A stretch of DNA of 63,769 nt, filler included, from Nemertoderma westbladi (Eukaryota > Animalia > Xenacoelomorpha), in the NCBI GenBank assembly GCA_032718475.1. It is 3 parts of 3 records of this genome, joined end to end, with 100 filler letters (N's around TTAATTAATTAA, not from the genome) between each part and the next. Parts side by side here need not be neighbours in the genome. Positions count along the whole stretch, not along the records: positions 1 to 31,966 come from JAUCBJ010005656.1; 2 more parts are not named here. One strand, written 5' to 3'. Positions 1-32,066 of this stretch are shown here, piece by piece (the stretch's first letter is position 1; each line of letters opens with the position of its first letter). The notes beneath the pieces are model-generated. The model worked only from the letters and a program-made list of their open reading frames with translations. It searched no databases and had not been told where the DNA came from. The translations under genes and the position numbers were made by a program.

Positions 1-2820
1 TTAAATGAACGGGACAAGGGCCACCTTTACTATCATAAAGAATGAGATGATTTACATTAGGGCCACAAATATACATCTTTTACAGTGGCCTTTTGCATCC
101 AAATTGATCTTACCAATAAACTGAGATGAAAAAGGGCCAGAATGAAATACAATGAGCTTAACAGCATTAGGGTAGGGCCATACTGTAGCGCCATGGAGAT
201 ATTTATGGACAAGGCTCTTTAGAGCTAGAACATAGTAACGAATAACGACCATAAGAACTATAAAAGTCCGTCTAGGCATAGAATTTATAATTATGCAATT
301 CTCCTTGTTCACTCCTACCAAATTTCAGATGGAATCTGATGGTTGGTTCTATAATTACACAGCTACTTCTACGATTCTGTCAATTCGCCCGCCTAGCGGC
401 AGACAGGGGAACTTTAAAGTCTGTCTGTGTGTATAATTTCTACTTAAGCAACGGCGATAACTGCCCGATGAAGACATGGGAACTTGAAAGTCTAACCGTA
501 CAGTACATAAAATATGTTCAAACAAAAATAATGTTTATTAAAATCTACATTATTTTAGTTTTAGGTTAACTGAGGTAAATATTACATTGCAAGTCTTACA
601 AATCATGTTACTATTCATGTCATTTTTTGAGAAAGTTTGACTGGCCCATTTGATTCAAAATTGATTTATTAAATTAAATGAACGGGACAAGGGCCACCTT
701 TACTATCATAAAGAATGAGATGATTTACATTAGGGCCACAAATATACATCTTTTACAGTGGCCTTTTGCATCCAAATTGATCTTACCAATAAACTGAGCT
801 GAAAAAGGGCCAGAATGAAATACAATGAGCTTAACAGCATTAGGGTAGGGCCATACTGTAGCGCCATGGAGATATTTATGGACAAGGCTCTTTAGAGCTA
901 GAACATAGTAACGAATAACGACCATAAGAACTATAAAAGTCCGTCTAGGCATAGAATTTATAATTATGCAATTCTCCTTGTTCACTCCTACCAAATTTCA
1001 GATGGAATCTGATGGTTGGTTCTATAATTACACAGCTACTTCTAAGTTTCTGTCAATTCGCCTCCCTAGCGGCAGACAGGTGAACTTTAAAGTCTGTCTG
1101 TGTGTATAATTTCTACTTAAGCAACGGCGATAACTGCCCGTTGAAGACATGGAAACTTGAAAGTCTAACCGTACAGTACATAAAATATGTTCAAACAAAA
1201 ATAATGTTTATTAAAATCTACATTATTTTAGTTTTAGGTTAACTGAGGTAAATATTACATTGCAAGTCTTACAAATCATGTTACTATTCATGTCATTTTT
1301 TGAGAAAGTTTGACTGGCCCATTTGATTCAAAATTGATTTAATAAATTAAATGAACGGGAAAAGGGCCACCTTTACAATCATAAAGAATGAGATGATTTA
1401 CATTAGGGCCACAAATATACATCTTTTACAGTGGCCTTTTGCATCCAAATTGATCTTACCAATAAACTGAGATGAAAAAGGGCCAGAATGAAATACAATG
1501 AGCTTAACAGCATTAGGGTAGGGCCATACTGTAGCGCCATGGAGATATTTATGGACAAGGCTCTTTAGAGCTAGAACATAGTAACGAATAACGACCATAA
1601 GAACTATAAAAGTCCGTCTAGGCATAGAATTTATAATTATGCAATTCTCCTTGTTCACTCCTACCAAATTTCAGATGGAATCTGATGGTTGGTTCTATAA
1701 TTACACAGCTACTTCTACGATTCTGTCAATTCGCCCGCCTAGCGGCAGACAGGGGAACTTTAAAGTCTGTCTGTGTGTATAATTTCTACTTAAGCAACGG
1801 CGATAACTGCCCGATGAAGACATGGGAACTTGAAAGTCTAACCGTACAGTACATAAAATATGTTCAAACAAAAATAATGTTTATTAAAATCTACATTATT
1901 TTAGTTTTAGGTTAACTGAGGTAAATATTACATTGCAAGTCTTACAAATCATGTTACTATTCATGTCATTTTTTGAGAAAGTTTGACTGGCCCATTTGAT
2001 TCAAAATTGATTTATTAAATTAAATGAACGGGACAAGGGCCACCTTTACTATCATAAAGAATGATATGATTTAAATTAAGGGCACAAATATATATCTTTT
2101 GCAGTGGCCTTTTGCATCCAAATTGATCTTACCAATAAACTGAGATGAAAAAGGGCCAGAATGAAATACAATGAGCTTAACAGCATTAGGGCCATACTGT
2201 AGCGCCATGGAGATATTTATGGACAAGGCTCTTTAGAGCTAGAACATAGTAACGAATAACGACCATAAGAACTATAAAAGTCCGTCTAGGCATAGAATTT
2301 ATAATTATGCAATTCTCCTTGTTCACTCCTACCAAATTTCAGATGGAATCTGATGGTTGGTTCTATAATTACACAGCTACTTCTACGATTCTGTCAATAC
2401 GCCCCCCTAGCGGCAGACAGGGGAACTTTAAAGTCTGTCTGAATTTAGAATTTCTAAATAAGCAATGCTTGTAGGTGTAGGTCACTCTTACCAAATTTCA
2501 AGAAGATATATCAACCATACATAAAATTATGTTCAAACAAAAATAATGCTTATTATTTTTACTTTTATTATTTTATTTTAGTTTGGTTAACTGTGGTAAT
2601 TACATTGCAAGTCTTACAATTCATATTACTATTCATGTCATTTTTTGAGAAAGTTTGACTGGCCCATTTGATTCAAAATTGATTTATTAAATTAAATGAA
2701 CGGGAAAAGGGCCACCTTTACTATCATAAAGAATGAGATGATTTACATTAGGGCCACAAATATACATCATTTACAGTGGCCCATTTGCATCCAAATTGAT
2801 CTTACAAATAAACTGAACTG
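1..2820. repeat. 673-bp tandem satellite, about 4.2 near-identical copies (inside the CK intron)
   Basis: TTAAATGAACGGG unit starts at 1, 674, 1347, 2020 and ~2692. Each unit has one CGCCC(G)CCTAGCGGCAGAC motif shared with the 147-bp arrays. Confidence 0.95.
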
Positions 2821-3481
2821 TAAGAATGAAGAGAAATAAGATAGGGCCATTGAGTTATATAGGTACACTATACCTACATATCTCACTTTATAGATATATA
2901 AGTTGGCCCTTTCGCTCGTTTTTTCATCTTTATGTATGTATATTAAAATGGTATATGTAGGAACATATATACACGAGATATGTAGATATACTAATGGCCC
3001 TTTTTACATCCATTCAGTGTTATATAGGTACATAATACCCTTCATTTCAAAGATACATATCTATGGCCCTTTAGGCCGAACGTACATATATATATATATA
3101 TACAGTACAATATGAAATATATTAACGTATATTAGCGTATATTAACGTGTGCTGGCGGTCACAAACACAAAATTATAAGTTTAAATTGAGGAAAATTAAT
3201 TTTTATAAAACCCAACGATATTTTATTTCAGCTGAAAATATTGTGTAACCGTACATGTTTTTATTTCTCCAACAAAATTAAAGATTCAAACTGAACTATT
3301 TTTTACCTTATGTGCAGGTGGGCCGTATATATTGAAATAAATGCAATTTCAAGTATTAAATTTCATTCTTTCAATATATTTCTATCTAGATAGTATTATA
3401 TTATATCAGGACATTATCTAAATATATGAGTGTTGTTATTAAAAACAAAAGGACAGATTAATGCAGATAGTTATTGTAAGT

Positions 3482-3860
3482 CATACCAGGTTATGTATTA
3501 ACATAAATTCTGTGACATACCTGGTGTGGTCATTTGTTACCATAGTAACTGTGTGACTTCCCTGGTGTGGACATACGTTACCATGCTGAATGTGTGACTT
3601 ACTTGGTGTGGTCATTTGTTACCATAGTAACTGTGTGACTTACCTGGTGTGGATATACTTTACCATATTGAATGTGTGACTTATCTGGTGTGGTCATCTG
3701 TTACCATAGTAACTGTGCGACTTACCTGGTGTCGTCATTTGTTACCATAGAAATTCTGTAACATACCTGGTGTCGTCATTTGTTACCATAGAAACTCTGT
3801 AACATACCTGGTGTCGTCATTTGTTACCATAAAAAACTCTGTGACATACCTGGTGTGGTC
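3482..3860 (-). repeat. 41-bp minisatellite (~9 copies) built from the exon end, 5' splice site and an X-box-like motif
   Basis: Unit of the type GTTACCATAGTAACTGTGTGACTTACCTGGTGTGGTCATTT; period 41 (3700, 3741, 3782, 3823). Confidence 0.9.
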
Positions 3861-5533
3861 TTCCTCATTTACCCAGACGAGGAAAGATTTATCGTCGTTA
3901 TGCCATATTCCTCGGGCTTCCGGCCAATCTCCCGCCATGTTGGAACTGAGAAGCAGTGGAGACACTGGTTTATCGAAGAGGAAGTGGTTGGCGATTAACT
4001 CATCTTGATCGGCCTCAGACATCGTCTCCAAACTATAATACTTCCCGCTGCATGGAATACATTAATCATTGATATGCACAACTTTTATATTTGTTTGCTG
4101 CTTATCAGGTGATCTCCAATAAAACCAATATTAGTTATTTCCTATGCACTAACCTAAATTCCCCATCGAGTTTGCTCAAGGCGTCCAGAACAATCTTCTC
4201 TACAGATTTCCTATCTTCCCGTCCCGTATGGGGAGGCAAGGCGTATCCCCTGACACTTCGTCCGGTTCTCACACGGGAACTCAGGACGAATTCGTCATCG
4301 AATTCTCCGCCTTCCAATTTATTCCAATCCAAATCAGTTTCATGTTTAGCATCCTAAAAATAAGTATTAAATGTAATGTATTTTCATTTTAATATTTAGG
4401 TTTTGTAATAGGAATTTGATATAGTTTTTACATTCCTCTCAATGTCGTTTACACCTGCTGTGCTGCTGACGAAACTTCAGCATTGAACATTTTTATAAAA
4501 GTGAACGATTATATGTTGCATAACGGATTTGGAACTGTCACCCTTATGCCAAAACTAGAGCTGTATATTAAGGAGAATAAAAATAAAAAAAATCGTTCAA
4601 TAATGTACCATTATTCTAAATCGAATCATCAAGTTTGAAAACTCCATGGGTATATTAAATTCCGTCAAATAATTTCAATGTCTATACTTTACACCATCAG
4701 AGATTTATGTTATGTAACTGAAATTATAATTGTTACACAAGTGCACCAGTCCCTATGCTGAGTTGTACGGCCTATTGAACTATTATAGAATACATGTCAA
4801 ATACACCCATATTCATCAGTCAGTTGTTCCCAAAGTATAATATAGGCAAGACCAGTTTTCATTACACGACCATAATGGAATGTTTCCTAATGCGGAATGA
4901 GGGACATGTGATTTCAAGAAGGCAATGCAATGTAAATACGAATTTGAGATATTAAGGAACAATTTCTGAAAACTGCATGATACATTCCAAAAAAGCCCTT
5001 TCATCTGTCTAGCTATACTTCAACAGAAGTAATAACAAAAATAACATTGTGTTAATGGTGACGATTAAAGATATCTTTACTCTCTAGAACTCAATATTCC
5101 CACTAAACTTTTAATGGCCACACAAGGTAGTCCGTCATTCCGAAATATTCTTCGAATATCTATAAACTAAAATATATTTGGTTAAATATTAAAGTTCCGT
5201 TAGCTACCTTAGCATAGCCTCCATGGCGCCCATCGATAACTGGATCGAATAACTCAGAAAATGTCTCATAACTTTCCTCGTCTCCCGCCACACACCCCAC
5301 TGTCATAATAAAAGGATGTCCTGGATTCTCCATACCCGTCTTTATCGCGCTGAGGAATGAAAATCCGCTTGAAGTTTTTTTATCGAATAAGTTTGAGTAT
5401 ATATCGGGTGTGAGGGATTTAGTCATCCAGTTATTATGTTTAGAGAGATCAGGGAATTCGTCTTGTTTGAGAGATTCAAACAGTTTCCGGCCTTCTTCTG
5501 GTATACCGATATGTTCTTCCTCGACCTGTTTAC
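3850..5533 (-). CDS. Creatine kinase domain 4 (3 exons seen; C-terminal part lies beyond the window)
   Basis: [36 protein letters not shown], then a GT donor. No downstream CK exon found in 1-3849. Confidence 0.88.
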
Positions 5534-8500
5534 CTATGAGGCAAAACATATTTTTTCGTTTTTTTTTTTTTTTTTTAGAAAAATCTCAATATTTTAATAA
5601 ATTATACAAATTAATTAATTATTGACAATGTTCCAACAAATTTGGATCCCTTGATTGATTTGTAAAAATATATAGAAACCTCCAAAGTTGAGATTATTAT
5701 TTTAAATTTATTGAATATACAATAAATTGTATATATATAACAATATGTTACAATTTATTGTATATATATATATATAAATAAATAAATATAAATTTATTTG
5801 TTGAGATAATTATAAGGTTGGGAAATGTTATGATTGATTTATATTACTTACCTTTGGGAGCAGGGATCATCTCATCAATAGATTCCCCTCTTTCAAGAGC
5901 TTTCTCTATGTCAACTAATAGGGTGACACCATCGATAACAAACTGCGCCAATTCAACCTCAGAGTAACCCAAACGATCCGAGTTACTGATATCGTAAACA
6001 CCACCTTCAGCCTTGGAACACAATAAATCAATAAATACGGAAAACTAAGCACCGGTAACTAACTATATCCTATTATTCTATGTTATTCTATATTTTAAGT
6101 TACGGAACATAATATTATCTCACCTTATCTTACATACAGACACGGTTTCGAATAGGACAATCCTCGAAATCATTCAGAAAAACGTATTATTATATAAAAT
6201 TAATCATTAAAATTCCTGTAATCCAATAGTAATTAGGACTTTATCAGCAGATTAGCTCCTTGCATTAACGACGACAGAGCTCCGTTTATGGAACACCATA
6301 TCATACCGTACCTTAGTATGCTCGCCTATCCGTTTCTGGTTACATACCTCAGTATCTACACCGCCTGTTCCGCGTTTCTGAAGCCTCAAATTTTTAAGAA
6401 TCAGTCCGAATTTATCATGGTTACAGAGTTTTGCCAATTTCACGTGGACGCCCGCCCGTAAACCAGTCCCGAGGTTGCTCGGACAAGTTAACACGTATCC
6501 CAAATGTTCATTCCACATGAATTCGTTGCCGGATTTCTTAACTTCCTCTTCAACTTTCTGCAAACCTTCACAGAATCGTCTAAAAACTTCCTTCATATTA
6601 CCACCTTTTTGCATCGATATAACTCTGTGAATAAAATGTAACTTTATTTCCACATTGTCAATATAAAGAAACATTCAAAACTATGAATTATTTCAGACAT
6701 TAAGTGCATATTGCACCATCATTGTAGTATATATATAATAAGCACGCGACTGAGTAGCAGAAACTGAAAGAATTACAGAAAAAAACTACAGAAATAAACA
6801 AAACCAATAAGAACTCACCATGAAATGGATTTTATAAATAATATGCTATTACAAAAAATATATCCTAAGTATTGAAGGAAATTTTAGATTAAAACTGTAT
6901 ATACTGACATGCCCTCTATGATCTATATTTAGTAGATATTAAAAGAACCTGCTGTGGTCTTCCTCATTGATCCAGACGAGGAATGTTTTGTCGTCATTGT
7001 GCCAAATTCCACGAGCCTCTGGCCAATCCTTCTCCATCTGGGAACTCAGTAGCAGAGGGGAAACCGGCTTGTCGAACAGAAAATGGTCGGCAATAAGTTT
7101 CTCTTGGTCTTCCTCACTCATTGTCTCCAGACTGTAATACTGACCTCTGCGTTGAAGGATTACGTTATAATTTAGACTTATTGGTTGGAACTGAAAGATA
7201 TTTTACAGAAATGATTCTAATTAATAATCTTGCAGCCTTGTTCCTTAACTGCAACCGGGAGCTTTCAAATGCAATACAAATAATAAATTATAGTAGGTAT
7301 TGGCCATTCTGTACAGACAAGACCAATTTATGAAGCACTAGCAGCTAAATCGTGAAAGATATCTCTGAATCGGTAACTGATAGCTGTTAGATGATATTAA
7401 CGGTAGCCGAAGCAAAACACTGTATAACTAATTTTGTTATTTATATTATATTTACAATATTTGTAAAATAAACGTGACGGCAGAAACGTTTTCCAGTATT
7501 TTTTGTAATGTAATTTGTGTTGAGATGTAAAGACATCAATAACTCGCTCTTAAATGTGGATCTTTTATATGATCTATTGATCTCTAGAGTTATACTATTT
7601 TATAAACTAAATTGCTGTTATAATACTAACGGTGTTAAGATTAAATTATAACACCCCACTCACTTAAACTCGCCCTCTAGGTTTCCCAAAGCAGTCACCA
7701 ATATCTCCTCCACTTTCTTCCTCTCTTCGCCTCTACAGTGGGGCGGCAGACCGTATCCTCTTATACTGCGGCCAGTTCGGACACGGGATGATAGAACATA
7801 ATCAGGGTCCATGTCTGTACCTCCAACTAACTTTGTCCAATCTAAGTCTGTTGGATGGATGGCGTCCTGGGAACAAGATACAGACATGTCATACGTTGTT
7901 TGCATGTGTACTGTAAATAGGAAGTGGTACAAAAATGAGATAAAATGCACTCTAAATGTTACAGTGGCAAAAAATTTGACAAAATTCACTATAAGACAGT
8001 GGTAAAAAAAAATGAGACAAAATTCCCTGAAAATATGACAGAGGTACACTAAATGACAAATTTTAACAGTAAATAAGACGGTTGTACAAAAAAGAGACAA
8101 AATGTACTGTGATTACGACAGTGGGACAAAAATGTGGCTAAATGCAATGTAAGTGGAGAGACTGACTACTAAATCAACGTCACAAGTACAGCAGCTCATT
8201 TTCTTTTACAATTAAATTTCATTTATTTTTACATAATTTTTATTTTAGATTTATTTCGTTTACTGACAGTACGGAATGAAGCAAGAAAAAGTACTAATTT
8301 AGGAAAAAAATTCGGTTTTACAAATGTGAAACAACATTGAGAATTAAAAAAATTCTGTTTTACAAATGTGAAACAACATTGAGAATTGCCATGTGCTCAA
8401 ATCTTTATTTTACCTCTAGACCATAGTGAAAATAATTTTACTTTTTTTTCCATTTAAATTTATATTAGTCTAAATAATCTTGTTAGTCTTTCAAATACGT

Positions 8501-11500
8501 ATTGTTGTTGTTTAACTGAACAAATTAAGAAACACTTAAAACTAGAGAAAATGTATATTAAATGAAAATTAATGTTTTTAAAATATTGTGCCGAATGTGA
8601 GCAGTAATATTATTTGGTGATGCTAAGTGGTCCTCATACTATATATAATTATAATTAAGGTAAACTAATTATTTTGGGGCTGCTTAATTATACAATTAAT
8701 TAATTATCTATTTAATATTCTCAACATACTTTACCGTATCCACCATGTCTTTTGTCAATTACGGGATCAAACATATCGGCGAATGCCGTGTAGCTCTCCT
8801 CGTCACCGGCCACACATCCTACAGTCATTATAAAGGGATGTCCCGCATTCTCTATACCGGTCTTTATGGCGTTGAGGAAACTGAATCCACTCGACGTTGA
8901 TTCATCATAATACTACAAAATATATAAAGAGACAAGTTATTATGAAACCATAAGAATTCGAAATCCGGATAAGCCAATGCCATATATATGTCTCTCTAAG
9001 AAGATAATATTCCGGTATTTATAGAACGTAAGTTAGTAATTACTATTAAATCACATTGACTATTAAACATGATGATTACAATAATTGACAAACCTTTTCA
9101 TACGCGTCGTTTGTTAAGCACTTGGCCATCCAGTTATTGTGGGATTTAGAAAGATCGGGGAAGGAACCCTTCGCTAAACTATTGAAGAGTTTAACTCCTT
9201 CTTCTGGAATCCCGATCTGTTGACTTCGAGTTGTCGGTTCCGGAATAAGATCATCGATAGATTCGCCTAGATGTCAAAACAAATTAAATCAATCTAAATA
9301 AAAACTGATTATATTTTTTAGAATGAATAAAATAATTAAAAAAAATTAAATACTTTGGTTTTGGCTGACAATATAATTGTGCAAGTCGGTGGCATTAGTG
9401 AGTGTAAATGGTTCTTACCAGACCCCCTAGTGCATAGATTCCTGGAGGACAATTAAACCAAGCAAGTTAGTAAAGTTAACTCATTAAATAAATAGGAAAG
9501 TACAACAATTATTCGACTAACTTACCATTTTCTAATCTCTTTTCCATTTCGATAAGCAGTTTGAGACCATCGACAAGAAATTGTACGAGTTGGACTTCCG
9601 AATATCCTAAACGGTCGGAGTTTGATATATCGAATATCCCGCCCTCGCTCTTGGTATCCACGCCGCCGGTACCCCGTTTCTGTAGCCGCAATGTCGTCAA
9701 AATCTCCTCAAACTTTTCGTGTGTACTCACACATGGAATCTAAGGAATTACCATGCCGTCATTTATATTACATTAGTTCCTAAATCCAGTCAAACAATTT
9801 ATTAATAACAATTTAATTATTATTGCAAATATTTTAATTTAACCCTAACCCTATTACCATATAATAACAAAAAAAAGCAGAATTGTTTGGCTGTACACCA
9901 AATTGTCAGCTTATCTTGAGGGCTCCAAATAATTAAATGATATTTAATTGTTCTTACCTTAATATGAACTCCAGCTCTGAGTCCGGTGCCCAGATTGCTT
10001 GGACAGGTCAGTATATACCCCAGGTGTTCGTTCCACATGAATTCCTGACCCGCGTTTTTCATTGCATTCTCAACTTTCTGAAGACCTTCGCAAAATCTCC
10101 GAAACACTTCCTTGACATTGCTGCCTTTCTGCATAGATATTACTCTGCATTGCAAAAATACTTAATTCAATTGGAAATATTTTAGGAATATTAACTAAGT
10201 AAGGTGCTGAATGCCAAACGTGTGAAGCTGAATGCAACGATGTCTATACAGTCTACGTCTAATCAGACTACGTTAGGCTACCTGTAACATCGCTATATTT
10301 TAATTTATTTTTCAATACTACTGAGCTGTAACTGTCCTACTGTCTGACAGTAGGCCTACGAACGTTACTGGCTTGGACAAACACAGAATGCATAACTTAT
10401 TGTCCATTACCCGCATGAAGCTAGAAAACGATAGCACAATGCTGAAATAAACTTGGTACTAATTTTCATTTCACACTGTCAATTATTTATGCCATTGCTC
10501 TTTAAATTTAATTCAGTGTGCACTTCAAACCGAATCAATGTATGAATTAATAGAAACTAAATTCTTTTGAAATTGTCCCATAGCACACATTTATCAATTC
10601 CACACATTTTGTTTACATAAGCCTATAAACTTTTAAATTTACCAGACATAAATAACAACTACCTTGTATGATCTTCCTCATTAATCCAAACAAGGAAGCT
10701 CTTATCCTCGTTATGCCAGATTCCCCTCCCTTCTGGCCACTCACGTTCCATATTGGAGCTCAGCAATAGAGGCGAAACGGGTTTGTCGAATAGAAAGTGA
10801 TCTGCAATTAATTTGTCCTGGAAATGAAAAAAATAATATGAATTTTTTATATTATTCATTTCTGTTAACTAATTTAATTATTTAACCCACCAATTAACCA
10901 TAATTTACAAGTTTGCAAAGGAATTAAAATCATTATAAATAATAATAAATTTTGAATACAGTAAAATTATACCGTTACAATAGTGCATTGAGCAATAAAG
11001 AAAAAATCAGCGATTAAAATAGAAACTGAAAAAAAAACATCACATAAACTAATACCTGATTTAATTAAACTAAACTAATTTGTGTGTCACTAGATATGTA
11101 AAATACATAATTAATAAATAAATTGGCCCACCTGATCTGTCTCTGTCATTGTCTCCAGCGAGTAGTACTTCCCCAAGAATTCTCCATCTAACTCTCCCAA
11201 AGCTTTAACTACAATGTCCTCAACATCCTTCCTATCCTTTTTGCCACTGTGCGGCGGTAATGCAAATCCTAAATAAAACAATTCAAATTTACAAGAATAA
11301 CTCATTCATTAGTTCTCAATAACTCATTCATTAGTTCTCAATAAATCATTCATTAGTTATCAATAACTCATTCATTAGTTCTCAATACCTCATTCATTAG
11401 TTCTCAATAACTCATTCATTAGTTCTCAATAACTCATTCATTAGTTATCAATAACTCATTCATTAGTTCTCAATAACTCATTCATTACTTCTCAATAACT

Positions 11501-14500
11501 CATTCATTAGTTATCAATAACTCATTCATTAGTTCTCAATAACTCATTCATTAGTTATCAATAACTCATTCATTAGTCTCAATAACTCATTCATTAGTTC
11601 TTAATAATTCATTCATTAGTTCTCAATAACTCATTCATTAGTTATCAATAACTCATTCATTAATCTCACTAACTCATTCATTAGTTCTTAATAATTCATT
11701 CATTAGTTCTCAATAACTCATTCATTAGTTCTCAATAACTCATTCATTAGTTCTCAATAACTCATTCATTAGTTATCAATAACTCATTCATTAGTTCTCA
11801 ATAACTCATTCATTAGTTATCAATAAATCATTCATTAGTCTCAATAACTCATTCATTAGTTCTTAATAATTCATTCATTAGTTCTCAATAACTCATTCAT
11901 TAGTTCTCAATAACTCATTCATTAGTTCTCAATAACTCATTCATTAGTTCTCAATAACTCATTCATTAGTTCTCAATAACTCATTCATTAGTTCTCAATA
12001 ACTCATTCATTAGTTCTCAATAACTCATTCATTAGTTCTCAATAACTCATTCATAAGTTATCAATAACTCATTCATTAGTCTCAATAACTCATTCATTAG
12101 TTCTTAATAATTCATTCATTAGTTATCAATAACTCATTCTTTAGTTCTCAATAACTCATTCATTAGTTCTCAATAACTCATTCATTAGTTATCAATAACT
12201 CATTCATTAGTTCTCAATAACTCATTCATTAGTTCTCAATAACTCATTCATTAGTTATCAATAACTCATTCATTAGTTCTCAATAACTCATTCATTAGTT
12301 ATCAATAACTTATTCATTAGTTCTCAATAACTCATTCATTAGTTATCAATAACTCATTCATTAGTTCTCAATAACTCATTCATTAGTTCTCAATAACTCA
12401 TTTATTAGTTCTCAATAACTCATTCATTAGTTATCAATAACTCATTCATTAGTTCTCAATAACTCATTCATTAGTTCTCAATAACTCATTATTTACCGCA
12501 TTTTATACTGTTACCGGAAACTTGTAGTTATTTATATCTTTTTGCACATAAATATATGCAATGTAACAGTAGTTGTTTAATAATTAATTAATACATTGTA
12601 ATTTAAATGCTACTTTTAGAATTGGAGTATATTCATATAGCTAAAGTGATGTTTCAAATTATAAAGTTCATAGAATGACTATTCTAAGCTTCGGTAGCTT
12701 AGGTAACGTCAATTCTAAGCTAAGGTAACTTCGCCTTCGTTCGTGATATAAGTATTACAGTAGAGTTAATTATATAAAGCGTTAGATAGTTTTATTTACC
12801 GCGAATACTCCTCCCAGTTCGAACTCGTGACGACAGGATATATTTATCATCTAAGTCGTCTCCGCCTTGCAGTTTGGTGTAATCCAGATCTGTGTGGTGT
12901 TTGGTGCTACCCGGATACCCTTAATAAATATTTAGTTTAGGTATGAAATTAAAAAGTTGATATGTTTTATTATTTTGGATATTTTGTACCTCTCTTAGGA
13001 CAATGTAAGTATTACATAAATTAACGGTAAAGGATCGCATCTCAATATTCTGTTTATCAACTTACTTATTAATACATTGATTATATTAAATATGATGAAA
13101 ATATAACAATGATAAAGCAATATAATCCTACAACTAAACCCTTGAACATGAAGCAAAACAACAATCGATAATGTTGTCAAAAACTGCCCAGAGTTCATAG
13201 AGATTTACTGGAACAGGATTCTCAGGTTGGTGAGGATCCTCAAAATAGTCTAGGAAAATAGTATTGTAATAGTACTAAAATGATATGATGATGGTTAAGT
13301 TTTCTTATGCCAATAAAATGTCTTTAAATGAAAAAACATCGGTACTGGTAATAAATACATCACGATTATTTAAACATTCAATTCATTGTGCAAATATGAC
13401 AATGCAATATGCAACCACCAAATTTAAAGAAAGTATGCAATATGTATGTCACATTCTTTCAGCATGGGGGATAATTTTATAATTATAAATAAAAGTTAAT
13501 TTACAAATTATTATAAATGAATACTTACCTCCATGACGCCCATCGATAACTGGATCGAATAACTCAGAAAATGTCTCATAACTTTCCTCGTCTCCCGCCA
13601 CACACCCGACTGTCATAATAAAAGGATGTCCTGGATTCTCCATACCCGTCTTTATCGCGCTCAGGAATGAAAATCCGCTCGAAGTTTTTTTATCGAATAA
13701 GTTTGAGTATATATCGGGGGTGAGGGATTTAGTCATCCAGTTATTATGTTTGGAGAGGTCAGGGAATTGGTCTTGTTTGAGAGATTCAAACAGTTTCCGC
13801 CCTTCTTCTGGTATACCGATCTGAAAAACAAATTCCGAAAGTAAATTGGTAATTCTTTGTAAATGTTCAGTTGTCATGCTTCGTTTCAAATTCGTTTCGC
13901 ACACAAATTTTACGAATAGAGCTAAACGTAAATTAATAATCATATTAAATTGTTTTTGCTCAATTTTCAAAGGCAAACGAAAAGCAATATTAGTAACTTA
14001 AATGTCTACTCCAGTTCTAAATTATACTAGAATGACAATCAATGAATTTTAAGAGGATATGTATAAAATGTACCAAGAATGATTCTCACAATCGATGTCT
14101 AGCCCTGTTAATAAATATTAAAAGGAAGAAGCACATAAGAACAATGATTTTATACCAAGAATGATTCTTACATGTTCTTCTCCAGAAGGCTCTTCTTTGT
14201 CTTTAATCTTGAACTCATTAGTTATGGGTTTGGGGACCATGGATTCAATGTCCTTACCCTCCTCCAAAGCCTCTTCCATTTCAACTAATTTACCTATGCC
14301 GTCTATTACAAGTTGCATTTGTTCTACCTCAGATGTTCCAATTCGGTCTACAAAGAAAAGTAAAAAATAATAAATTATGTATGTAGGAAAGTGATTAATG
14401 AATTAATATGGTCCGACCAAGATCGAACCGATCTGGAACTTCCCAATCACACGTGCGATATGGCGATGGCATATCGCCAACATCTTGGCTGTTAATTATA

Positions 14501-17500
14501 CTATTAGCAATGTTATTAGAGAAAAATATTATATAATAATTATATTGTTAAATGATAAGTGGTTATTATCTGTGTGTGGTTTATTCTGTATTAAATCGGG
14601 CGACGTCGTGTAACTCACCTAGATTAGATATATCGAATATCCCGTCAGTAGAAGCCGTATCCACACCCCCTGTTCCGCGTTTCTGTAGCCTCAAGTTGGA
14701 CAGAATATCATCGAACTTGGGATGGGCACTGAGAAGTGGTAGTTTAACGTGGACACCCGCTCGCATTCCTGTGCCAAGATTGCTGGGGCAAGTGAGCACA
14801 TAGCCTAAATGTTCGTTCCACATAAATTCGTTTCTGAAATGTACCATATCATAGTTATGGCTATTACATAACAAGACATAAATATGAGAGGTAAAACTGA
14901 GAATATAACAATATAGCGCAGTATACAGTGGACTTCGCCTTTCACTAATGAAATTTGAGTCCACAATTCTTCCTTTCTTCTCCTTTATCCACCACTTTAA
15001 GTACGGTAACTCAACCTACATTTGTTTTTTACCCTCCTCTTTAAGTAATCACCCTACCTTGTTTTTTATCCACCACTTAAGTACGGTAACTCAACCTACA
15101 TTGTTTTTTACCCTCCTTTTTAAGTACGGTAACTCCAACCTACCCTTGCTGTTTTACCACATCCTCCACTCGTTTGAGACCATCGCAGAATCGGCGGAAC
15201 ACCGCACTCATATCTCCTCCTTTCTGCATTGATATAACTCTGGTATGATCCTCCTCGTTCACCCATACCAAAAAGGTCTAAAAAATATAATAGCTTCATA
15301 TTGCAGTTGATCCTGAGCAATAATTACATGTTGTTAGTTTAAGCGAATAAGTTTAACACAAGGTTGAAAAAACATTAGATAGACAAATACAAAGCTACTA
15401 CCTATTAATTGGATTAAACATTTAGCATCAGACCAGTTAAATATTTTTCAAGGTTAAAAGTTGATATATTTAAATTGCATCAAATGAATAACCCACCAGC
15501 CACCAACCTTATCATCATTGTGCCATATCCCTCGTGCATCTGGCCAATCACGGGCCATTCCACTGGCTGTCAGCAGAGGCGATACTGGCTTATCGAACAA
15601 GAAGTGATCATTGATTAGTTGGTCTTGTTCTTCCTCTGTCATCTTACCCAAAGGATAATATTTACCCTGAAATTCACCTGTAATATATAATTAGGTTGTG
15701 ATTTCAAATCATTCGGTAGCTGTTAATAGTACAATTTTCAACGATTGAAACTTACATCAAAGATAATGGCAAGAACACAAAATTTTTATAAATGACATGA
15801 AATACAGAACCTTGCAAATTTCGTCAATTAGCAGACAAAAACTAAAATAGAGTATCTCTAAATCTAACTTGATAATAATTTCACTCCTTTATATAAGCAA
15901 AACTATTATAGTAAACTAAAACCCTATTTGGTCTGGGTAATTATACTACGTTGTTGGCCCGGTGGGTTGGGGGGTGGGTAATTTTATAAATTTTTTAGAT
16001 CTTGGCTCAAATTTTCAAATTATGATGGTATAAGGTTTTTCGAGGTCGCTCATCAAGACAAAGCTCGTTAAAAATATTTTTTGGCAATGCAACCATTATT
16101 TGGACTCCCCCAGGACGAAAAGTACAAGTAGCAAAAAATTACAAACTGTTAAATGTTGTCTTTGGTTTGGTAATTCTGAAGCTATACTGGATTTCAAGGT
16201 CGCTGATAACGATACAACTTGTTACATATCATTAGAAATATAGAAAAATTGAATTTGGTTGGATAATACGATATTTTTGAGTGTCATAATCGTGATCAGC
16301 GTCCTAGAAAACCCCTAATATCATAAAATGAGGTTGATTTCTTAATTATTGTTGATTATCAAATTTGTGCTGCTTGTATTGTTCGTGCCCCACATTCACG
16401 CGTGTCCAAAAATTCCCTAATCAACAACATACGATATATTTCAGTGTCATATTGTTTTTTCGTGTCCAAGGGGGCACATTCAAATGACCCACATTTTTTC
16501 GAATGTTATTGAGTTCTATAATCGTGATCAGCATCCATAAAAACCGCTATATACCGCAAATAAATTAATTTTAGTGACCCATAACAATTTTTGAAAATTT
16601 TAACATGTAAAATACTTTGAGATGGGTGCCAGACAGGACCGACAGCAGGAAAACTAACATAGCCAGGTAAATGGTCGTTTGCTCTATTGGATAGCCCATT
16701 AAATTTGGGGAAAAGTCACAAAATATCGGTTTTCCCAAAACACCTGACTCAAAGATACACATGAATTATAAAAAAAATTCTAAAATTACCCCCTAAAATT
16801 GGGCTAGATGATAGAATCTAACAATAATATTACATTCATACATCGTCATATTATAAAAAAATGAACAAAATGAAAGTACTTTGTATTTATTTTAACTAAA
16901 TTATGATAATATGGACAGCAATTTCTGCGTTAAATTAATTTGTTACATTGTAATAATTGTAATAATGTTATTGATTTACACCTTGTGACTCAAAGTTTGG
17001 AAAATATATTCAGCATTTCTTTATTTATTATTCCACATTTATTTTATCTGCAATTTTTCTCAGATATATGCCAAACTGTGAACTTTTATAAAACTTACCA
17101 TCTAAGGTCGCTAACGCCGTTGTTACTATCCGCTCTACTGCCCTCCGTTCTGCTCTGTTATTGTGTGGCGGTAAACTCAATCCACGAACACATCGTCCAG
17201 TTCGGACTCGCGAAGACAGAACATACTTATCGTTGAACTTTCCTCCAACTATCTTTGTGTGATCCAAATCGGTCGGATGTCTGTCGATAGAAAATACAGA
17301 CATGGTGGCTATTTGATATGAGGTCATACATAACCCATGAATACAGACATGGTGGCTATTTGATATGAGGTCATACATAACCCATAAATACAGACATGGT
17401 GGCTATTTGATATGAGGTTATACATAACCCATAAATACAGACATGGTGGCTATTTGATATGAGGTCATACATAACCAATAAATACAGACATGGTGGCTAT

Positions 17501-20500
17501 TGGATATGAGGTCATCCATAACCCATAAATACAGACATGGTGGCTATTTGATATGAGGTCATACATAACCAATAAATACAGACATGGTGGCTATTGGATA
17601 TGAGGTCATCCATAACCCATAAATACAGACATGGTGGCTATTTGATATGAGGTCATACATAACCAATAAATACAGACATGGTGGCTATTGGATATGAGGT
17701 CATCCATAACCCATAAATACAGACATGGTGGCTATTTGATATGAGGTCATACATAACCCATAAATACAGACATGGTGGCTATTTGATATGAGGTCATCCA
17801 TAACCCATAAATACAGACATGGTGGCTATTTGATATGAGGTCATACATAACCCATAAATACAGACATGGTGGCTATTTGATATGAGGTCATCCATAACCC
17901 ATAAATACAGACATGGTGGCTATTTAATATGAGGTCATACATAACCCATAAATACAGACATGGCGGCTATTTGATATGAGGTCATACATAACCAATAAAT
18001 ACAGACATGGTGGCTATTGGATATGAGGTCATACATAACCCATAAATATAGACATGGTGGCTATTTGATATGAGGTCATCCATAACCCATAAATACAGAC
18101 ATGGTGGCTATTTGATATGAGGTCATACATAACCCATAAATACAGACATGGTGGCTATTTGATATGAGGTCATACATAACCCATAAATACAGACATGGTG
18201 GCTATTTGATATGAGGTCATACATAACCCATAAATACAGACATGGTGGCTATTTCATATGAGGTCATACATAACCCATAAATATAACATCCAAAAGTTGC
18301 AATTATTTCCGAATTATAGGGGTAAGTTGCTGGATATATAGATTGGTCATTAAAGCCGCGCGCTATAGTGTGCCATTATTCTGGCGATATATATATATTT
18401 TTATATTTTTGAATATAAATATGAGGTTTACTACAGTATATCTCCTGGGATAGTTATATAATACCCGCAAACAACGAAAAATACGAAATTATCAACGAAA
18501 ATATAGAAATTATCAAACAATCTAAAAAATCTCGCTTTCCAGTAAGATAGGTATTATTAGAAGGCCCAGTTTACATTTTTTAATTAATAAAATCCAATAA
18601 TTTCTCTCCATTTTCGACCTTAAAAGTAATTTAATACCAAATACTGTCTGCTGCTTGGTTGTTATGTGTTGACCAATGGCGGCTTGAACGAATCAAGTCA
18701 GCAGATCATTTCACTTATCTATTAAAACCATGGTACAAGCCTGAAGGGGAAAAGTTGAAGGAACCGGTCCGGTACTGTAACCCAACACTGCAACACAACT
18801 GCAAAGTCAGACTGTCCTACCTCTGCTAACCTGTAGGCTACCAGCTACTGGAAGGCCGTAACGGTAGGCCAGTAGGCGGTAGGCTTATTTTATTAATTAA
18901 AAATGTAACATGTGCCTTCTAAATAATACTGATATCACTGGAAAGCGAGATTTTATTTAAAGTTTCATAATTTCGATATTTTGGTTAATAATGTCGTCTT
19001 TTTCGTTATTTGCGGGTTTTATAACTATCCTATATCATCCCGTATACTGCCTTTGACGGATAGCAAGTGTATCGAACAGTCGACGGTCATTCTGTTCGAT
19101 GTAATATAATGGTTTTCCTCAAAAATGGAACAAACGAGGAAACACGTCACCGGGGGTTGAACCAGCGCTATACGTACGTTTCTGCCTATCAGGCCTCACC
19201 AGTAGCGCTAACCAGTTCCACTTGTTCCTGACACTTGCTTTCCCAACTAATCCACTTCTATTGTACATGCAGTCTTAAGTTTCTATATATCCTATCTCCT
19301 TGCATACTCCAATTTATTCCGTCCGATACCTAGGCTATCAGTGAAGGGCAGTATATAAAGTAAACCTCACATCTTTATATTCATCACTTTATTTCCAGCC
19401 GGGATAAAGAGTTTATCCCGCTGGTATATAAAGATCAATCTTGTATCCGGAAACTTTGCCTAATTCGGTAATACAGGCTATTTTTACAAATACAATATAT
19501 GAATATAAAGTAAATATAATAATAAATATAATAAATAAATGCGATAAAACAAATATAAAAATATAATTGAATAAATGAATAGATGAAATAAAATGACTAA
19601 AGAAATTAGAACATAGGGTATTATAAAAATCATATTATAATGAAAATACAATTCATATATTTATTTACATTCCATTCTTTGGATATCCACTGTGTCGGAG
19701 TCTGATAACTTCATCAAACATTTCGGAAAATACACTGTAACTGTCTTCATCACCTGCTACACATCCAACTGTCATTATGAATGGATGTCCGGGGTTATCC
19801 ACACCAGTTTGAATGGCCTGCAATATAAATAAATCCTTTATTAATTGTTTATACATTCACAATTATTACTTTATCTTGCCTCATATAGACCTCACAAAAT
19901 ACCGTTTTACTTCAACGGATAACACTTATGACTTATGCTCGCCCTTATCTGTTTGATTTTGCTGAGATCTCGATCTAAATTGATTGTTAAATTAAAATAT
20001 TGTTTCAATTGTTTCCGTAGAGGCGGTCGTTTAAGCGTCAATGATAAGTTTACTTTATAATGACCAAAACTTCACGATCTCTAACTCTTATTACTGGGTG
20101 TTGAATTCCAGACATCGCTCTCCAGACATATAATTGCTCTAATTAATATGGATAGTAACAATGATGAGACCCAGTAAGGTCGAAACGCGTACGTGGTTTG
20201 GAGAGATATGAGATATTAATTTCAAGAAAAATTACGCGATTCCTAAATTTGTACAATACCCGGTTAAAAAGTACGCATGTGATGGGATTAGTCCTACAAT
20301 TGCGCCAATAAAAGATAAGTTATTTTCGGTAAAATAAACTTATCATTCGAGGTTAAGACCCCTATATCCCTTCCTATAACTAATTAATATGTAAAGCTAT
20401 GAAAGTAGCAAACACGATAAATAAACCGCAACTGATATAGCTGAAAACTTCCCTGGCTCTTTTTCGTCTGAAAGTGCAACCCGTAATCGAGTATGGCTTT

Positions 20501-22085
20501 CGTGATATCTGGCCCTTCTTATCGGCAATAAAGTCATCGGAGGACACAAAACGACGAACAACACAGTGGTTTTGACTCTCTACCGAGATAAACAGTGGGT
20601 TGAGATATCGTCCATAAATTATTCTCCCTAACTCATTCATTGGAATTCCAGAATTATTTAGTTGTAGTAGCCGATTGGCCGAGACATGGAGTGGACCAAA
20701 CCAATATACAAGAACAGAAACGTAATTACAAGGTTTGCCATTCATGGATACCACCACAAGTTCTAGTTAATATCTTCTTCATATAAGTTCTACTTTATAT
20801 CTTCTTCATATCATTGGCTGGGGGTAGACTGTGTCTGCAGACTATATCTGTGGCTGTAGACTGTCTCTGCCGTACCTGCCTGAACCTACGTTTTAATTTA
20901 TTCGTTTTTTTCTCCTATTCTAATTATTTAAATGGTCCGAATTTAATATTAATATTATTGTAAATATTGTAGTGTAAATCTGCCTTCTTGGTGTAATACA
21001 ATTTATATATATATTGTTGAGATACTCACAGCGTCCAATGTAAACCCACTAGGCGTCCTCAGTTTGCTTAGGCGTTCGTACATGTCCATGGTCAAACAGT
21101 TCGCCATCCAGTTGTTGTGGACGGACAGGTCTGGAAAATTATCCGCGGGGCTCCACTTAAATATTTGTTCCCCCAAATCACCTAAAAATCATAGAGAGAC
21201 TTTATAAGAAGAGCAGATAGGGGGGTATGGGGGGGGGGGGGGGTGGGGGGGGACTGGACGCAATAAAAGTTCATCACTCTCCAGGGAAAATTCGACGCAA
21301 ATAACAGCTGATTATTCTCAAAAATACAACTGTAAAAAAATTTTACATTGAGGCGGGATATTAATTCGCCAATGCGGGATTTGCGTCCAGTCCCCCCCCC
21401 CCCCCCCGGTCTCTAGAAGAGACAACTTAGAAGTAATAATATTCAAAATCTTTCATTATAATCTACTAACGTTACATATTTGTGATTATGTAATATTATT
21501 TATTACATTTTAACTCTTTTATGAATTAGGCTATCTATGGTAATCAAGCCTTTCCAATAATACATCATGAATCAAAGCAACATGAGAGTCAAAGAAATCA
21601 GCCCCTCATTTAATTAAATAAACTAAATGAACGCTATTTAAAACATCTTTAGTAACTAAATTAAATATTATCTGATTGAATATTCAACATCATCTTTCAT
21701 TATTATATTTGAAGAACCAATCTTGGTGCAACTGAAATATATTGAACCACCATCACCCATATTTAAAACAACTATGGTAAACGGTAGCCACGCTGCCGCG
21801 GGTTGCCATGAATGCCAGGTTGTCATAGCTGGCCCGTTGCCATGTCTACCAACAACGTTACTTTTACGTTGTTGATTGATACATTTAGTATCCTACTTGG
21901 ATATTTGATATAGTTTCCCAGATACAAACCAACTTACCTTCAGGGTGCTGACCTTTCTGAATACCTTGGAAATACTTTGCTGCGAACTCCTTTAGTTCAG
22001 GTGGTTGTTGGCGCAGAACGTTGATGGTAAACCCCTGGAGAAGATCCACCAACCCTGGCGGTGCCTTGTACTTGTTGCCAGACAT
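3850..22085 (-). CDS. RIIa D/D domain + at least 4 contiguous creatine kinase domains (flagellar-type multi-domain CK), 3'-incomplete
   Basis: Hand-spliced coding exons (minus): 21938-22085, 21030-21181, 19669-19817, 17099-17280, 15508-15677, 15144-15277, 14619-14833, 14172-14347, 13529-13820, 12800-12919, 11132-11268, 10663-10817, 9958-10144, 9526-9739, 9094-9266, 8730-8912, 7664-7866, 6949-7146, 6348-6624, 5852-6011, 5208-5533, 4154-4353, 3850-4047. All introns are GT-AG and all phases match. CK motifs [25 protein letters not shown] and NEEDH occur four times; TCPSNLGTG and RGTGGVDT occur three times within the window. Confidence 0.9.
5852..9266 (-). CDS. Creatine kinase domain 3 (6 exons)
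   Basis: Exon 9094-9266 contains the end of domain 2, the linker and the start of domain 3 in one reading frame. Complete motif set. Confidence 0.92.
7920..8150. repeat. Degenerate ~36-bp tandem repeat near the acceptor of exon 7664-7866
   Basis: Recurrent ACAGTGG..AAAAATGAGACAAAAT-like blocks. Confidence 0.5.
9526..13820 (-). CDS. Creatine kinase domain 2 (6 exons)
   Basis: Complete CK motif set including NEEDH and the active-site CPSNLG; follows domain 1 in frame via a [16 protein letters not shown] linker. Confidence 0.92.
11297..12490. repeat. 22-bp minisatellite (~54 copies)
   Basis: Unit AACTCATTCATTAGTTCTCAAT. Confidence 0.97.
14172..21181 (-). CDS. Creatine kinase domain 1 (7 exons)
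   Basis: [12 protein letters not shown]...[14 protein letters not shown]...[13 protein letters not shown]...NEEDH...TCPSNLGTG...RGTGGVDT; the most canonical of the four copies. Confidence 0.93.
14985..15150. repeat. Short imperfect tandem repeat derived from the donor of exon 15144-15277
   Basis: TAAGTACGGTAACTCAACCTAC repeated 3-4 times; on the minus strand each unit recreates GTAGGTTG. Confidence 0.7.
17292..18283. repeat. 47-bp minisatellite (~21 copies)
   Basis: Unit AAATACAGACATGGTGGCTATTTGATATGAGGTCATACATAACCCAT. Confidence 0.97.
18447..19030. mobile_element. Foldback/MITE-like element with ~150-bp imperfect terminal inverted repeats
   Basis: GGATAGTTATATAATACCCGCAAA...TCTCGCTTTCCAGT...TTAATTAATAAAA (18447-18592) is mirrored by 18885-19030. 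Confidence 0.65.
20155..20200 (+). ncRNA. Degenerate minimal hammerhead-ribozyme-like motif (Penelope-type remnant)
   Basis: TGATGA-GACC-cagtaa-GGTC-GAAAC-GC-GTA has stem II and a palindromic ACGCGT stem III. The first core C is replaced by A and stem I is poor. Confidence 0.4.
21214..21413. mobile_element. MITE with poly-G/poly-C subterminal tracts and 8-bp TSD (hAT or P-like)
   Basis: CAGATAG(G)n-GACTGGACGCAA...TTGCGTCCAGT(C)n-GGTCTC; flanks AAGAAGAG / TAGAAGAG (7/8). Same family as 49032-49303. Confidence 0.8.
21770..21850. promoter_or_regulatory. Cluster of RFX X-box-like sites in the first coding intron of the CK gene
   Basis: GTTGCCATGAATGC (21802), GTTGTCATAGCTGG (21819) and GTTGCCATGTCTAC (21836) lie in a small GC-richer island. 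Confidence 0.5.
21938..22085 (-). CDS. First coding exon: PKA RII-type dimerization/docking domain
   Basis: [39 protein letters not shown] matches the RIIa D/D pattern (PPGLxxLLQGyTvxVLRQQPPdLxEFAxxYF). Its phase-1 GTAAG donor joins the first CK exon in frame. Confidence 0.88.
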
Positions 22086-22146
22086 TTTCAGATCAATTTA
22101 TTCAAAGTTAATAACTAAAAATGAATATTAACAAATTGTAACATTA

Positions 22147-24331
22147 TGGAACCAATAAACTGTGTGTAAATGGAACCAATAAACTGTGTGTAAATGAAAC
22201 CAATAAATTATGTGTAAATGGAACCAATAAACTGTGTGTAAATGGAACCAATAAACTGTGTGTAAATGGAACCAATAAACTGTGTGTAAATGGAACCAAT
22301 AAACTGTGTGTAAATGGAACCAATAAACTGTGTGTAAATGGAACCAATAAACTGTGTGTAAATGGAACCAATAAACTGTGTGTAAATGGAACCAATAAAC
22401 TGTGTGTAAATGGAACCAATAAACTGTGTGTAAATGGAACCAATAAATTATGTGTAAATGGAACCAATAAATTATGTGTAAATGGAACCAATAAACTGTG
22501 TGTAAATGGAACCAATAAATTATGTGTAAATGGAACCAATAAACTGTGTGTAAATGGAACCAATAAACTGTGTGTAAATGGAACCAATAAACTGTGTGTA
22601 AATGGAACCAATAAACTGTGTGTAAATGGAACCAATAAACTGTGTGTAAATGGAACCAATAAACTGTGTGTAAATGGAACCAATAAACTGTGTGTAAATG
22701 GAACCAATAAACTGTGTGTAAATGGAACCAATAAACTGTGTGTAAATGGAACCAATAAATTATGTGTAAATGGAACCAATAAATTATGTGTAAATGGAAC
22801 CAATAAACTGTGTGTAAATGGAACCAATAAATTATGTGTAAATGGAACCAATAAACTGTGTGTAAATGGAACCAATAAACTGTGTGTAAATGGAACCAAT
22901 AAACTGTGTGTAAATGGAACCAATAAACTGTGTGTAAATGGAACCAATAAACTGTGTGTAAATGGAACCAATAAACTGTGTGTAAATGGAACCAATAAAT
23001 TATGTGTAAATGGAACCAATAAATTATGTGTAAATGGAACCAATAAACTGTGTGTAAATGGAACCAATAAATTATGTGTAAATGGAACCAATAAACTGTG
23101 TGTAAATGGAACCAATAAACTGTGCGTAAATGGAACCAATAAACTGTGTGTAAATGGAACCAATAAACTGTGTGTAAATGGAACCAATAAATTATGTGTA
23201 AATGGAACCAATAAATTATGTGTAAATGGAACCAATAAACTGTGTGTAAATGGAACCAATAAACTGTGTGTAAATGGAACCAATAAACTGTGTGTAAATG
23301 GAACCAATAAACTGTGTGTAAATGGAACCAATAAACTGTGTGTAAATGGAACCAATAAACTGTGTGTAAATGGAACCAATAAACTGTGTGTAAATGGAAC
23401 CAATAAACTGTGTGTAAATGGAACCAATAAACTGTGTGTAAATGGAACCAATAAACTGTGTGTAAATGGAACCAATAAACTGTGTGTAAATGGAACCAAT
23501 AAACTGTGTGTAAATGGAACCAATAAACTGTGCGTAAATGGAACCAATAAACTGTGTGTAAATGGAACCAATAAACTGTGTGTAAATGGAACCAATAAAT
23601 TATGTGTAAATGGAACCAATAAACTGTGTGTAAATGGAACCAATAAACTGTGTGTAAATGGAACCAATAAATTATGTGTAAATGGAACCAATAAACTGTG
23701 TGTAAATGGAACCAATAAATTATGTGTAAATGGAACCAATAAATTATGTGTAAATGGAACCAATAAACTGTGTGTAAATGGAACCAATAAATTCTGTGTA
23801 AATGGAACCAATAAATTATGTGTCAATGGAACCAATAAACTGTGTGTAAATGGAACCAATAAACTGTGTGTAAATGCAACCAATAAACTGTGTGTAAATG
23901 GAACCAATAAACTGTGTGTAAATGGAACCAATAAACTGTGTGTAAGTGGAACCAATAAACTGTGTGTAAATGCAACCAATAAACTGTGTGTAAGTGGAAC
24001 CAATAAACTGTGTGTAAATGCAACCAATAAACTGTGTGTAAATGGAACCAATAAACTGTGTGTAAATGGAACCAATAAACTGTGTGTAAATGGAACCAAT
24101 AAACTGTGTGTAAATGGAACCAATAAACTGTGTGTAAATGGAACCAATAAACTGTGTGTAAATGGAACCAATAAACTGTGTGTAAATGGAACCAATAAAC
24201 TGTGTGTAAATGGAACCAATAAACTGTGTGTAAATGCAACCAATAAACTGTGTGTAAATGGAACCAATAAACTGTGTGTAAATGGAACCAATAAACCTGT
24301 GTGTAAATGGAACCAATAAACCTGTGTGTAA
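22147..24331. repeat. 24-bp minisatellite (~91 copies) in the presumed 5'-UTR intron of the CK gene
   Basis: Unit GGAACCAATAAACTGTGTGTAAAT; it ends ~30 nt from a TTTTTAG acceptor (~22116) just upstream of the ATG. Confidence 0.97.
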
Positions 24332-31966: not shown

Positions 31967-32066
31967 NNNNNNNNNNNNNNNNNNNNNNNNNNNNNNNNNN
32001 NNNNNNNNNNTTAATTAATTAANNNNNNNNNNNNNNNNNNNNNNNNNNNNNNNNNNNNNNNNNNNN
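31967..32066. other. Artificial scaffold spacer
   Basis: 44 N + TTAATTAATTAA + 44 N. Confidence 0.97.

Follow-up and report, generated by a model that had tools for sequence, protein, structure and literature searches.

A creatine kinase gene of at least four fused domains with an RIIa-type first exon in Nemertoderma westbladi

Structure of the gene and of its encoded chain

We analyzed a 63,769-nucleotide stretch of DNA from the xenacoelomorph Nemertoderma westbladi (assembly GCA_032718475.1; positions 1 to 31,966 come from JAUCBJ010005656.1), referred to here as the window. Its minus strand carries a creatine kinase (CK) gene whose first exon encodes a docking/dimerization (D/D) domain of the protein kinase A (PKA) RII type, followed by four CK domains, of which three are complete and the fourth, cut at the left edge of the window, is present to two-thirds of its length (Table 1). 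The joined coding sequence in the window comprises 4,349 nt, or 1,449 stop-free codons, and all 22 introns are of the GT-AG type. These values agree with a preliminary description of the sequence, which had proposed 23 in-phase exons with about 1,450 codons, a domain 2-to-3 junction inside a single exon (9094-9266), and a conserved IGIPEEGxKLFxSL linker ahead of domains 2, 3, and 4. The junction lies in exon 15, and the linker, IGIPEEG[RV]KLF[EN]SL, directly precedes each of the three domains. Domain limits were set by searching the 1,449-residue chain with CK domain 3. A GT donor closes exon 23. The left end of the window, 1-3849, contains 41-bp and 673-bp tandem arrays but no motif of a CK C-terminus; the gene therefore continues beyond the left edge, as the preliminary description had also held.

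The linker was absent from the linkers of 23 other proteins (25 were examined, two of which gave no output). Its reading as a decayed half D/D domain was rejected, as it aligns with the N-terminal arm of domain 1 and matches to mitochondrial CK chains reach into it.

A Pfam scan, which had been suggested for this gene, gave matches to ATP-gua_PtransN and ATP-gua_Ptrans on single exons, and the domain pair is present. All four domains contain GHPFI, RH[SG]GY, and NEEDH, while CPSNLG and GGVDT occur in domains 1-3, the corresponding part of domain 4 lying outside the window. The NEED motif, the CPSN cysteine, and the GGVDT loop are CK motifs, located here by pattern. Of the marks of creatine specificity named in the preliminary description, GHPFI and RH[SG]GY were thus recovered throughout and GGVDT in three domains. 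Additionally, each domain has the CK-type GS loop GHPFIMTVG, the same loop as in CK structures, together with an Arg at the residue-95 position and a Val in the GS region, both of which are marks of CK as described in PMC3836730. The best PDB matches of exon 21 were CKs (E 2e-36), compared with 2e-21 for the best arginine kinase and 1e-19 for glycocyamine kinase. Judging from these residues, creatine is very probably the substrate.

The first exon, which the preliminary description had overlooked, is more unusual than the domain count. It is not CK sequence and encodes a PKA-RII-type D/D domain (Pfam RIIa PF02197, E 9.4e-9, 35.2 bits versus a cut-off of 22.4). Among solved structures, it matched the RII-alpha D/D domain (E ~1e-12), Sp17 (2e-6), RSP7 (3e-4), and ROPN1L (1e-3), and its identity to RII D/D sequences is 55-60%. 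None of the 5 invariant or 9 near-invariant columns of a 41-row alignment is altered in exon 1. The marks of the R2D2 class, namely a Gly at the start of helix I, a Pxx[LIV] loop, and YF in helix II (PMC8339350), are present as G11, P28-P-E-L31, and Y38-F39. The exon ends at a phase-1 intron and is spliced to exon 2, and hence to domain 1, in a contig of the public run X4 (contig 22, see below). An in-frame TAA stands four codons ahead of the ATG at 22085, and the chain begins with MSG, so that it has no Gly2 myristoylation site. No ATG-Gly-Cys start was detected on the minus strand in 21000-45000, and no other part of a PKA regulatory subunit gene, cAMP-binding domains included, was detected within the window.

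A homodimer model of exon 1 scored 0.37, against 0.01 for the best control, with contacts agreeing to at least 94% between runs and a pLDDT of 72. In calibration, 17 of 29 eukaryotic homodimers and none of 30 single chains attained the mark used for such models, but so did only 1 of the 7 eukaryotic homodimers without an older solved relative; the pass may thus reflect mere likeness to solved D/D dimers. Based on homology and the model together, dimerization of the chain via its RIIa domain appears likely.

Transcripts and the origin of the fourth domain

Four public runs (X1-X4, from three studies) cover the locus, X2 and X3 being one sample. Contigs of X4 splice 13 of the 22 introns (1, 2, 11-20, and 22) at the predicted sites with CT..AC ends, whereas none of these joints is present in X1-X3. 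Since the X4 contigs skip exactly the predicted introns, we infer that X4 is cDNA. The length of contig 22 (1,519 nt) is exactly that of a 158-nt leader together with exons 1-8 and the first 35 nt of exon 9. It differs from the window at two sites inside exon 1, and the 127 extra letters at its 5' end had no match in 18300-22135. A further run, X6, gave no match. Contig 27 (2,078 nt) fits exons 10-20 plus short flanks. The size arithmetic of these two contigs is the support for introns 3-10, and that for intron 21 is a 16-letter X4 loose end identical to the last letters of exon 21. The junction between domains 3 and 4 (exon 20 to exon 21) is spliced in X4 contigs. Together with the open frame, the X4 joints bear out the earlier claim of at least four contiguous CK domains in one polypeptide, and transcripts ending after domain 3 or split into separate genes, which had been considered as alternatives, were not what the contigs contained.

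Contig 25 of X4 extends 755 nt beyond exon 23, and an 84-nt piece of this extension matches the CPSN exon of domain 2 (90% threshold), which makes it likely that domain 4 is complete in the full transcript. About 433 nt are needed to finish domain 4; the remaining ~320 nt either are 3' untranslated region (UTR) or open a fifth domain. The chain probably has four domains in all; if it stops ~145 codons beyond exon 23, it would measure ~1,594 residues and 179 kDa. At 3952-3986, loose ends of X2 and X4 and a high summed X4 depth (4,409) suggest that the animal has another CK gene, distinct from this one.

A 292-nt tract covering exon 9 recurs inside exon 21 with 96.9% identity, and X1 depth across 3083-5256 is about half that elsewhere. 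Both would fit an artefact, either a duplication of domain 4 in the assembly or a set of separate neighboring genes read as one, and the possibility of such a duplicate had been raised previously. This explanation is largely refuted, and we consider it extremely improbable. The two copies of the tract show 9 differences, 8 of them at third codon positions; their similarity ends at the exon 9 borders, and they have no intron sequence in common. Downstream of the tract, the protein of exons 22-23 in domain 4 shares 75% of its residues with domain 2 and 73% with domain 3. Among the residues shared there, ~62% of the codons differ from those of domains 2 and 3, with silent sites saturated. Furthermore, the domain 4 region is present in the genomic runs of two other studies, X2 and X3 as well as X4 contain it with variants of their own, the exon 20 to 21 splice is found in X4, and no stop codon follows domains 1-3.

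These features suggest that the exon 9/21 tract is likely the product of recent gene conversion. Three downstream intron positions of domain 4 match domain 3, and only one matches domain 2. Domain 4 would accordingly be an old duplicate of a domain-3-like unit, in which recent conversion made the N-terminal lobe uniform with that of domain 2. A conversion tract bounded by an exon offers a clean case of concerted evolution between the domains of one gene. At 5176-5256, contigs of X1, X2, and X3 seem to run into the first part of intron 21 before they depart from the window sequence at 5176 with the same 30 letters. This may represent an allele with an insertion or another partial copy of the tract.

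Table 1. Features of the CK gene and, below them, repeats and neighboring elements of the window
Feature	Position	Strand	Remarks
RIIa and CK gene	3850..22085	minus	23 coding exons, ATG at 22085
Exon 1 with short 5' UTR and RIIa (R2D2) D/D domain	21938..22114	minus	Pfam, structure match, X4 splice
CK domain 1	14232..21149	minus	Residues 61-422, exons 2-8; introns 1-2 are X4 joints
CK domain 2	9241..13781	minus	Residues 456-819, exons 9-15; introns 11-14 are X4 joints
CK domain 3	5862..9177	minus	Residues 841-1205, exons 15-20; introns 15-19 are X4 joints
CK domain 4, first 220 residues	3850..5471	minus	Residues 1230-1449, exons 21-23; introns 20 and 22 are X4 joints
Exon 15	9094..9266	minus	Domain 2 end, linker, and domain 3 start in a single frame
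Exon 9 tract	13529..13820	minus	292 nt, 96.9% identical to 5219-5510
Domain 4 copy of the tract	5219..5510	minus	Inside exon 21
Exons 1-5	22085-21938, 21181-21030, 19817-19669, 17280-17099, 15677-15508	minus	
Exons 6-10	15277-15144, 14833-14619, 14347-14172, 13820-13529, 12919-12800	minus	
Exons 11-15	11268-11132, 10817-10663, 10144-9958, 9739-9526, 9266-9094	minus	
Exons 16-20	8912-8730, 7866-7664, 7146-6949, 6624-6348, 6011-5852	minus	
Exons 21-23	5533-5208, 4353-4154, 4047-3850	minus	
Tandem array, 673 bp	1-2816		
Tandem array, 41 bp	3511-3860		Intronic/flanking; unit copies the exon 23 end including its donor site
Tandem array, 22 bp	11296-12490		Intronic/flanking
Tandem array, 47 bp	17292-18283		Intronic/flanking
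Tandem array, 24 bp	22146-24333		
Hydrophobic frames of 145 and 301 codons	28934-31898	minus	Upstream of the CK gene, same strand; we take them to be likely exons of an MFS-type membrane transporter, by sequence pattern
Gap	31967-32066		Separates the MFS exon from the next element
Long terminal repeat (LTR) retrotransposon	32067-38307	plus	332-bp terminal repeats 99.4% identical; 1,642-codon frame at 32571-37496; apparently young
Intron-free frame of 649 codons	44265-46211	minus	Signal-like start, cysteine-containing ectodomain, one likely membrane helix; tail with 12-residue GGTPPMYG-type repeat; no Pfam match at E 0.1
Non-LTR retrotransposon reverse-transcriptase frame	54092-56567	minus	609 codons
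Non-LTR retrotransposon reverse-transcriptase frame	57381-58811	minus	Broken
Frame of 404 codons	59103-60314	plus	33-bp repeat region ~59270-59677, probably coiled-coil-like

Multi-domain and D/D-bearing phosphagen kinases

We counted domains in the best 120 of 905 and the best 120 of 146 database matches, which comprised 184 distinct phosphagen kinases. Four or more domains were present in 39 of these, and 15 of the 39 were CK-type clusters with four or five domains. One of the 15 contains the Geodia barretti 'Creatine kinase, flagellar', and the Geodia barretti record CAI8014668.1 has four CK domains. P0001-P0013 cluster with Geodia barretti in a FastTree of 216 domains, and P0036 and P0277 are nearest to it among 11 named proteins compared, so all 15 clusters are apparently from sponges. 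Among the matches listed, no named non-sponge animal CK had more than three domains. An eight-domain reading of the 3,008-residue Geodia barretti record, suggested by its length, was rejected; it contains four CK domains and an SNF2 helicase. Other multi-domain phosphagen kinases were P0276 (Dysidea avara, six domains), P0285 and P0291 (Macrostomum lignano, five and four), and P0286 (Meganyctiphanes norvegica, four or more).

The preliminary description had not recognized a four-domain CK as a described architecture, and had named an abundance of such CKs in databases as grounds for refutation. In view of the database clusters, this objection applies in part, and the domain count is less novel than had been assumed. 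No paper on a four- or five-domain CK was found in our literature search, which was thin on subscription journals. This blank is weak, since 'three-domain creatine kinase' was also unmatched there. In a quick IQ-TREE analysis of 59 of the 216 domains, with mitochondrial CK left out, 18 sponge domains formed a clade (SH-aLRT 99) with the window gene outside it, and window domains 2-4 formed a clade of their own (SH-aLRT 98). The FastTree of all 216 domains gave the same placement outside the sponge clade. Thus, four domains already exist in databases, but the expansion in the window appears independent of that in sponges. Phosphagen kinases have been fused to four to six domains several times, in sponge CKs and arginine kinases, Macrostomum, krill, and protists, and owing to this repetition, the open problem of what drives such fusions can be compared between lineages.

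When 214 phosphagen kinases, including that of the window, were searched with a D/D profile, it matched the window chain at 1e-19 and six others weakly; among the 213 further phosphagen kinases, it detected no other CK with a D/D domain. In a Pfam scan of 18 proteins, P0319 exceeded the RIIa cut-off (23.7 versus 22.4 bits), and six more (P0298, P0301, P0293, P0297, P0302, and P0338) gave sub-threshold RIIa or Dpy-30 matches. All seven are non-CK proteins lacking the GHPFI/GGVD set, and these protist proteins are likely dinoflagellate, by the likeness of their GS loops to that of P0299. P0314 shows the same upstream D/D-like pattern by eye, without a Pfam match, and P0320 combines MORN repeats and an adenylate kinase with two phosphagen kinase domains.

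Searches starting from exon 1 gave a similar picture. None of 124 exon-1 matches (50%-identity representatives) contained a CK domain, and an exon-1 search for longer proteins returned two candidates, neither of which matched, as weak evidence. An Atlas search yielded stand-alone RIIa clusters only, with every score below 0.9. We found no paper on a CK or other phosphagen kinase with a D/D domain, subscription journals being thinly covered. The sponge gene calls probably lack their true first exons, many starting at an internal Met, so that sponge CKs might in fact carry a D/D domain as well.

Predicted role and comparison with known systems

We propose that the RIIa exon would pair two CK chains into a dimer, and that the dimer would dock on a helix of the A-kinase anchoring protein (AKAP) type in a scaffold of the cilium or sperm tail. 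Next to the dynein motors, the docked enzyme would make ATP from phosphocreatine and ADP, and each docking site would hold at least eight active sites. A flagellar-type CK would have gained a docking exon, analogous to AK8, and this exon would have taken the place of the N-myristoylation anchor that the canonical flagellar trimer uses. For this reading as a whole, that is, a dimerizing CK of at least four domains that is AKAP-docked in the cilium or sperm tail and regenerates ATP at dyneins, we estimate a probability of about 0.5. Taken singly, a ciliary location is somewhat favored, and the odds are even that the chain docks on an AKAP helix, for which it might pair with a different D/D protein in a mixed dimer. 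More tentatively, the gene may be the first CK with a captured PKA-RII docking domain, in which the myristoyl anchor was swapped for an AKAP anchor and the chain grew independently to at least four domains, giving an axoneme-bound dimer with at least eight active sites.

Several observations weigh against this proposal. Ile3 and Ile5 are anchoring determinants of RII, Ile5 being one of two key isoleucines (PMC8339350), and the equivalent of Ile5 in exon 1 is Ala8, at a position where each of 40 aligned relatives has Ile or Val; docking is uncertain for this reason. The Ile3 equivalent is Tyr6, at a position that is aromatic in 24 of the 40. None of the four runs is recorded as RNA, although X4 behaves as cDNA. 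No single X4 contig covers all four domains, because of breaks at the near-identical exon 9/21 tract. The idea of an expanded flagellar CK, put forward in the preliminary description, agrees with the finding that the chain is closest to flagellar-type CKs among the named matches listed, but the quick tree places the window domains in no firm grouping with flagellar D1, D2, or D3. In that tree, the closest neighbor of domain 1 is flagellar D1 of Nematostella (73%), at an open fork.

The loss of the Ile5 equivalent while dimer-core residues are kept speaks for the main rival explanation, in which the RIIa domain dimerizes only and the product is a large soluble multi-site CK in the cytoplasm, muscle, or cilia without AKAP docking. 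The weak binding of SPA17 homodimers to AKAP18 reported in PMC8339350 points the same way. However, most other groove-facing positions assigned by homology (L12, L16, Q17, T20, L24, and R25) match the family consensus, and the mixed dimer of AK8 with EFCAB10, which docks near dyneins (PMC11779644), indicates that one weak residue need not abolish docking. We regard a purely dimerizing domain as unlikely. It is rather improbable that exon 1, as a fragment captured from a PKA-RII gene, now provides only a promoter and start codon, with the docking fold as a decaying passenger. The close identity to RII D/D sequences, the phase-1 intron end, the loss of a conserved docking residue, and the absence of another CK with an RIIa domain from our protein searches would suit such a capture, but all invariant columns are kept with neither a frameshift nor a stop, and the window holds no further part of a PKA regulatory subunit gene.

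The proposed AKAP docking might also involve non-ciliary sites such as muscle, membranes, or mitochondria, with the CK serving PKA signaling sites instead of dyneins. Exon 1 is closer to PKA RII than to the ciliary Sp17, RSP7, RSP11, and ROPN1L, and RIIa-clan proteins also occur outside cilia (PMC3494852). Conversely, most of the named multi-domain CK relatives listed bear a flagellar annotation, and D/D proteins other than PKA are described as recurrently ciliary (PMC8339350), which leaves a non-ciliary site a small probability.

Among known systems, a close point of reference is the flagellar CK, the classic far end of the phosphocreatine shuttle, which is targeted by a lipid anchor. In sea urchin sperm, a contiguous CK trimer forms the tail end of this shuttle (PMC3080659), and myristoylation drives the membrane association of this enzyme, TCK (PMC13024116). 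Flagellar trimers (TCK, Chaetopterus Q67ER6, Ciona, Nematostella, hemichordate, lancelet, and P0014-P0044) resemble the window chain in their tandem complete CK domains and CK signature residues, with up to 73% identity per domain. They differ in having three fused domains as opposed to at least four, and an MGC myristoylation start where the window chain has the RIIa domain; MGC stands at or near the start in 15 of 26 named animal multi-domain CKs. If docking in the cilium or sperm tail holds, the gene could serve as a test case of whether it matters for beating that ATP regeneration is tied to the axoneme scaffold rather than to the membrane.

The sponge CKs (CAI8014668.1/CAI8014669.1, P0001-P0013, P0036, and P0277) likewise combine four or five complete CK domains within a single reading frame. 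Their clade is separate, and a D/D domain was not detected in it, true first exons being likely missing, and the Geodia barretti models carry an upstream SNF2 helicase, probably from a merged gene call, unlike the window chain. The protist phosphagen kinases (P0319 and others) also have a D/D-like segment ahead of two to four kinase domains. Their segment is flanked by helices, has a PxxP loop, and lies 110-190 residues into the protein, whereas that of the window chain is N-terminal; the protist and window fusions are likely convergent.

Compared with the D/D domains of PKA RII (PDB 2IZX, 2HWN, and 8S8O), the window domain has Tyr and Ala in place of Ile3 and Ile5, and PKA RII carries cAMP-binding domains, of which there are none in the window. 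Phosphotransfer enzymes joined to a D/D domain are known from radial spokes. An RIIa domain anchors AK8 (spokes 1 and 2) to RSPH3, and Dpy-30 anchors AK7 (spoke 3) to CFAP91, often in mixed dimers and near the dyneins (PMC11779644), while the RSP23 nucleoside diphosphate kinase is tethered via Dpy-30 (PMC3494852). For these three enzymes, which belong to other catalytic families, docking on a spoke helix is reported in the papers cited, whereas that of the window chain is predicted from sequence. The D/D domain of AK8 is of the R1D2 type (PMC8339350), compared with the RII-like R2D2 type here. If our reading is correct, CK would join the list of D/D-anchored enzymes, the word 'creatine' being absent from the main text of PMC8339350. 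Together with AK8, AK7, RSP23, and the protist kinases, it would then represent a repeated convergence on D/D-tethered ATP regeneration in cilia.

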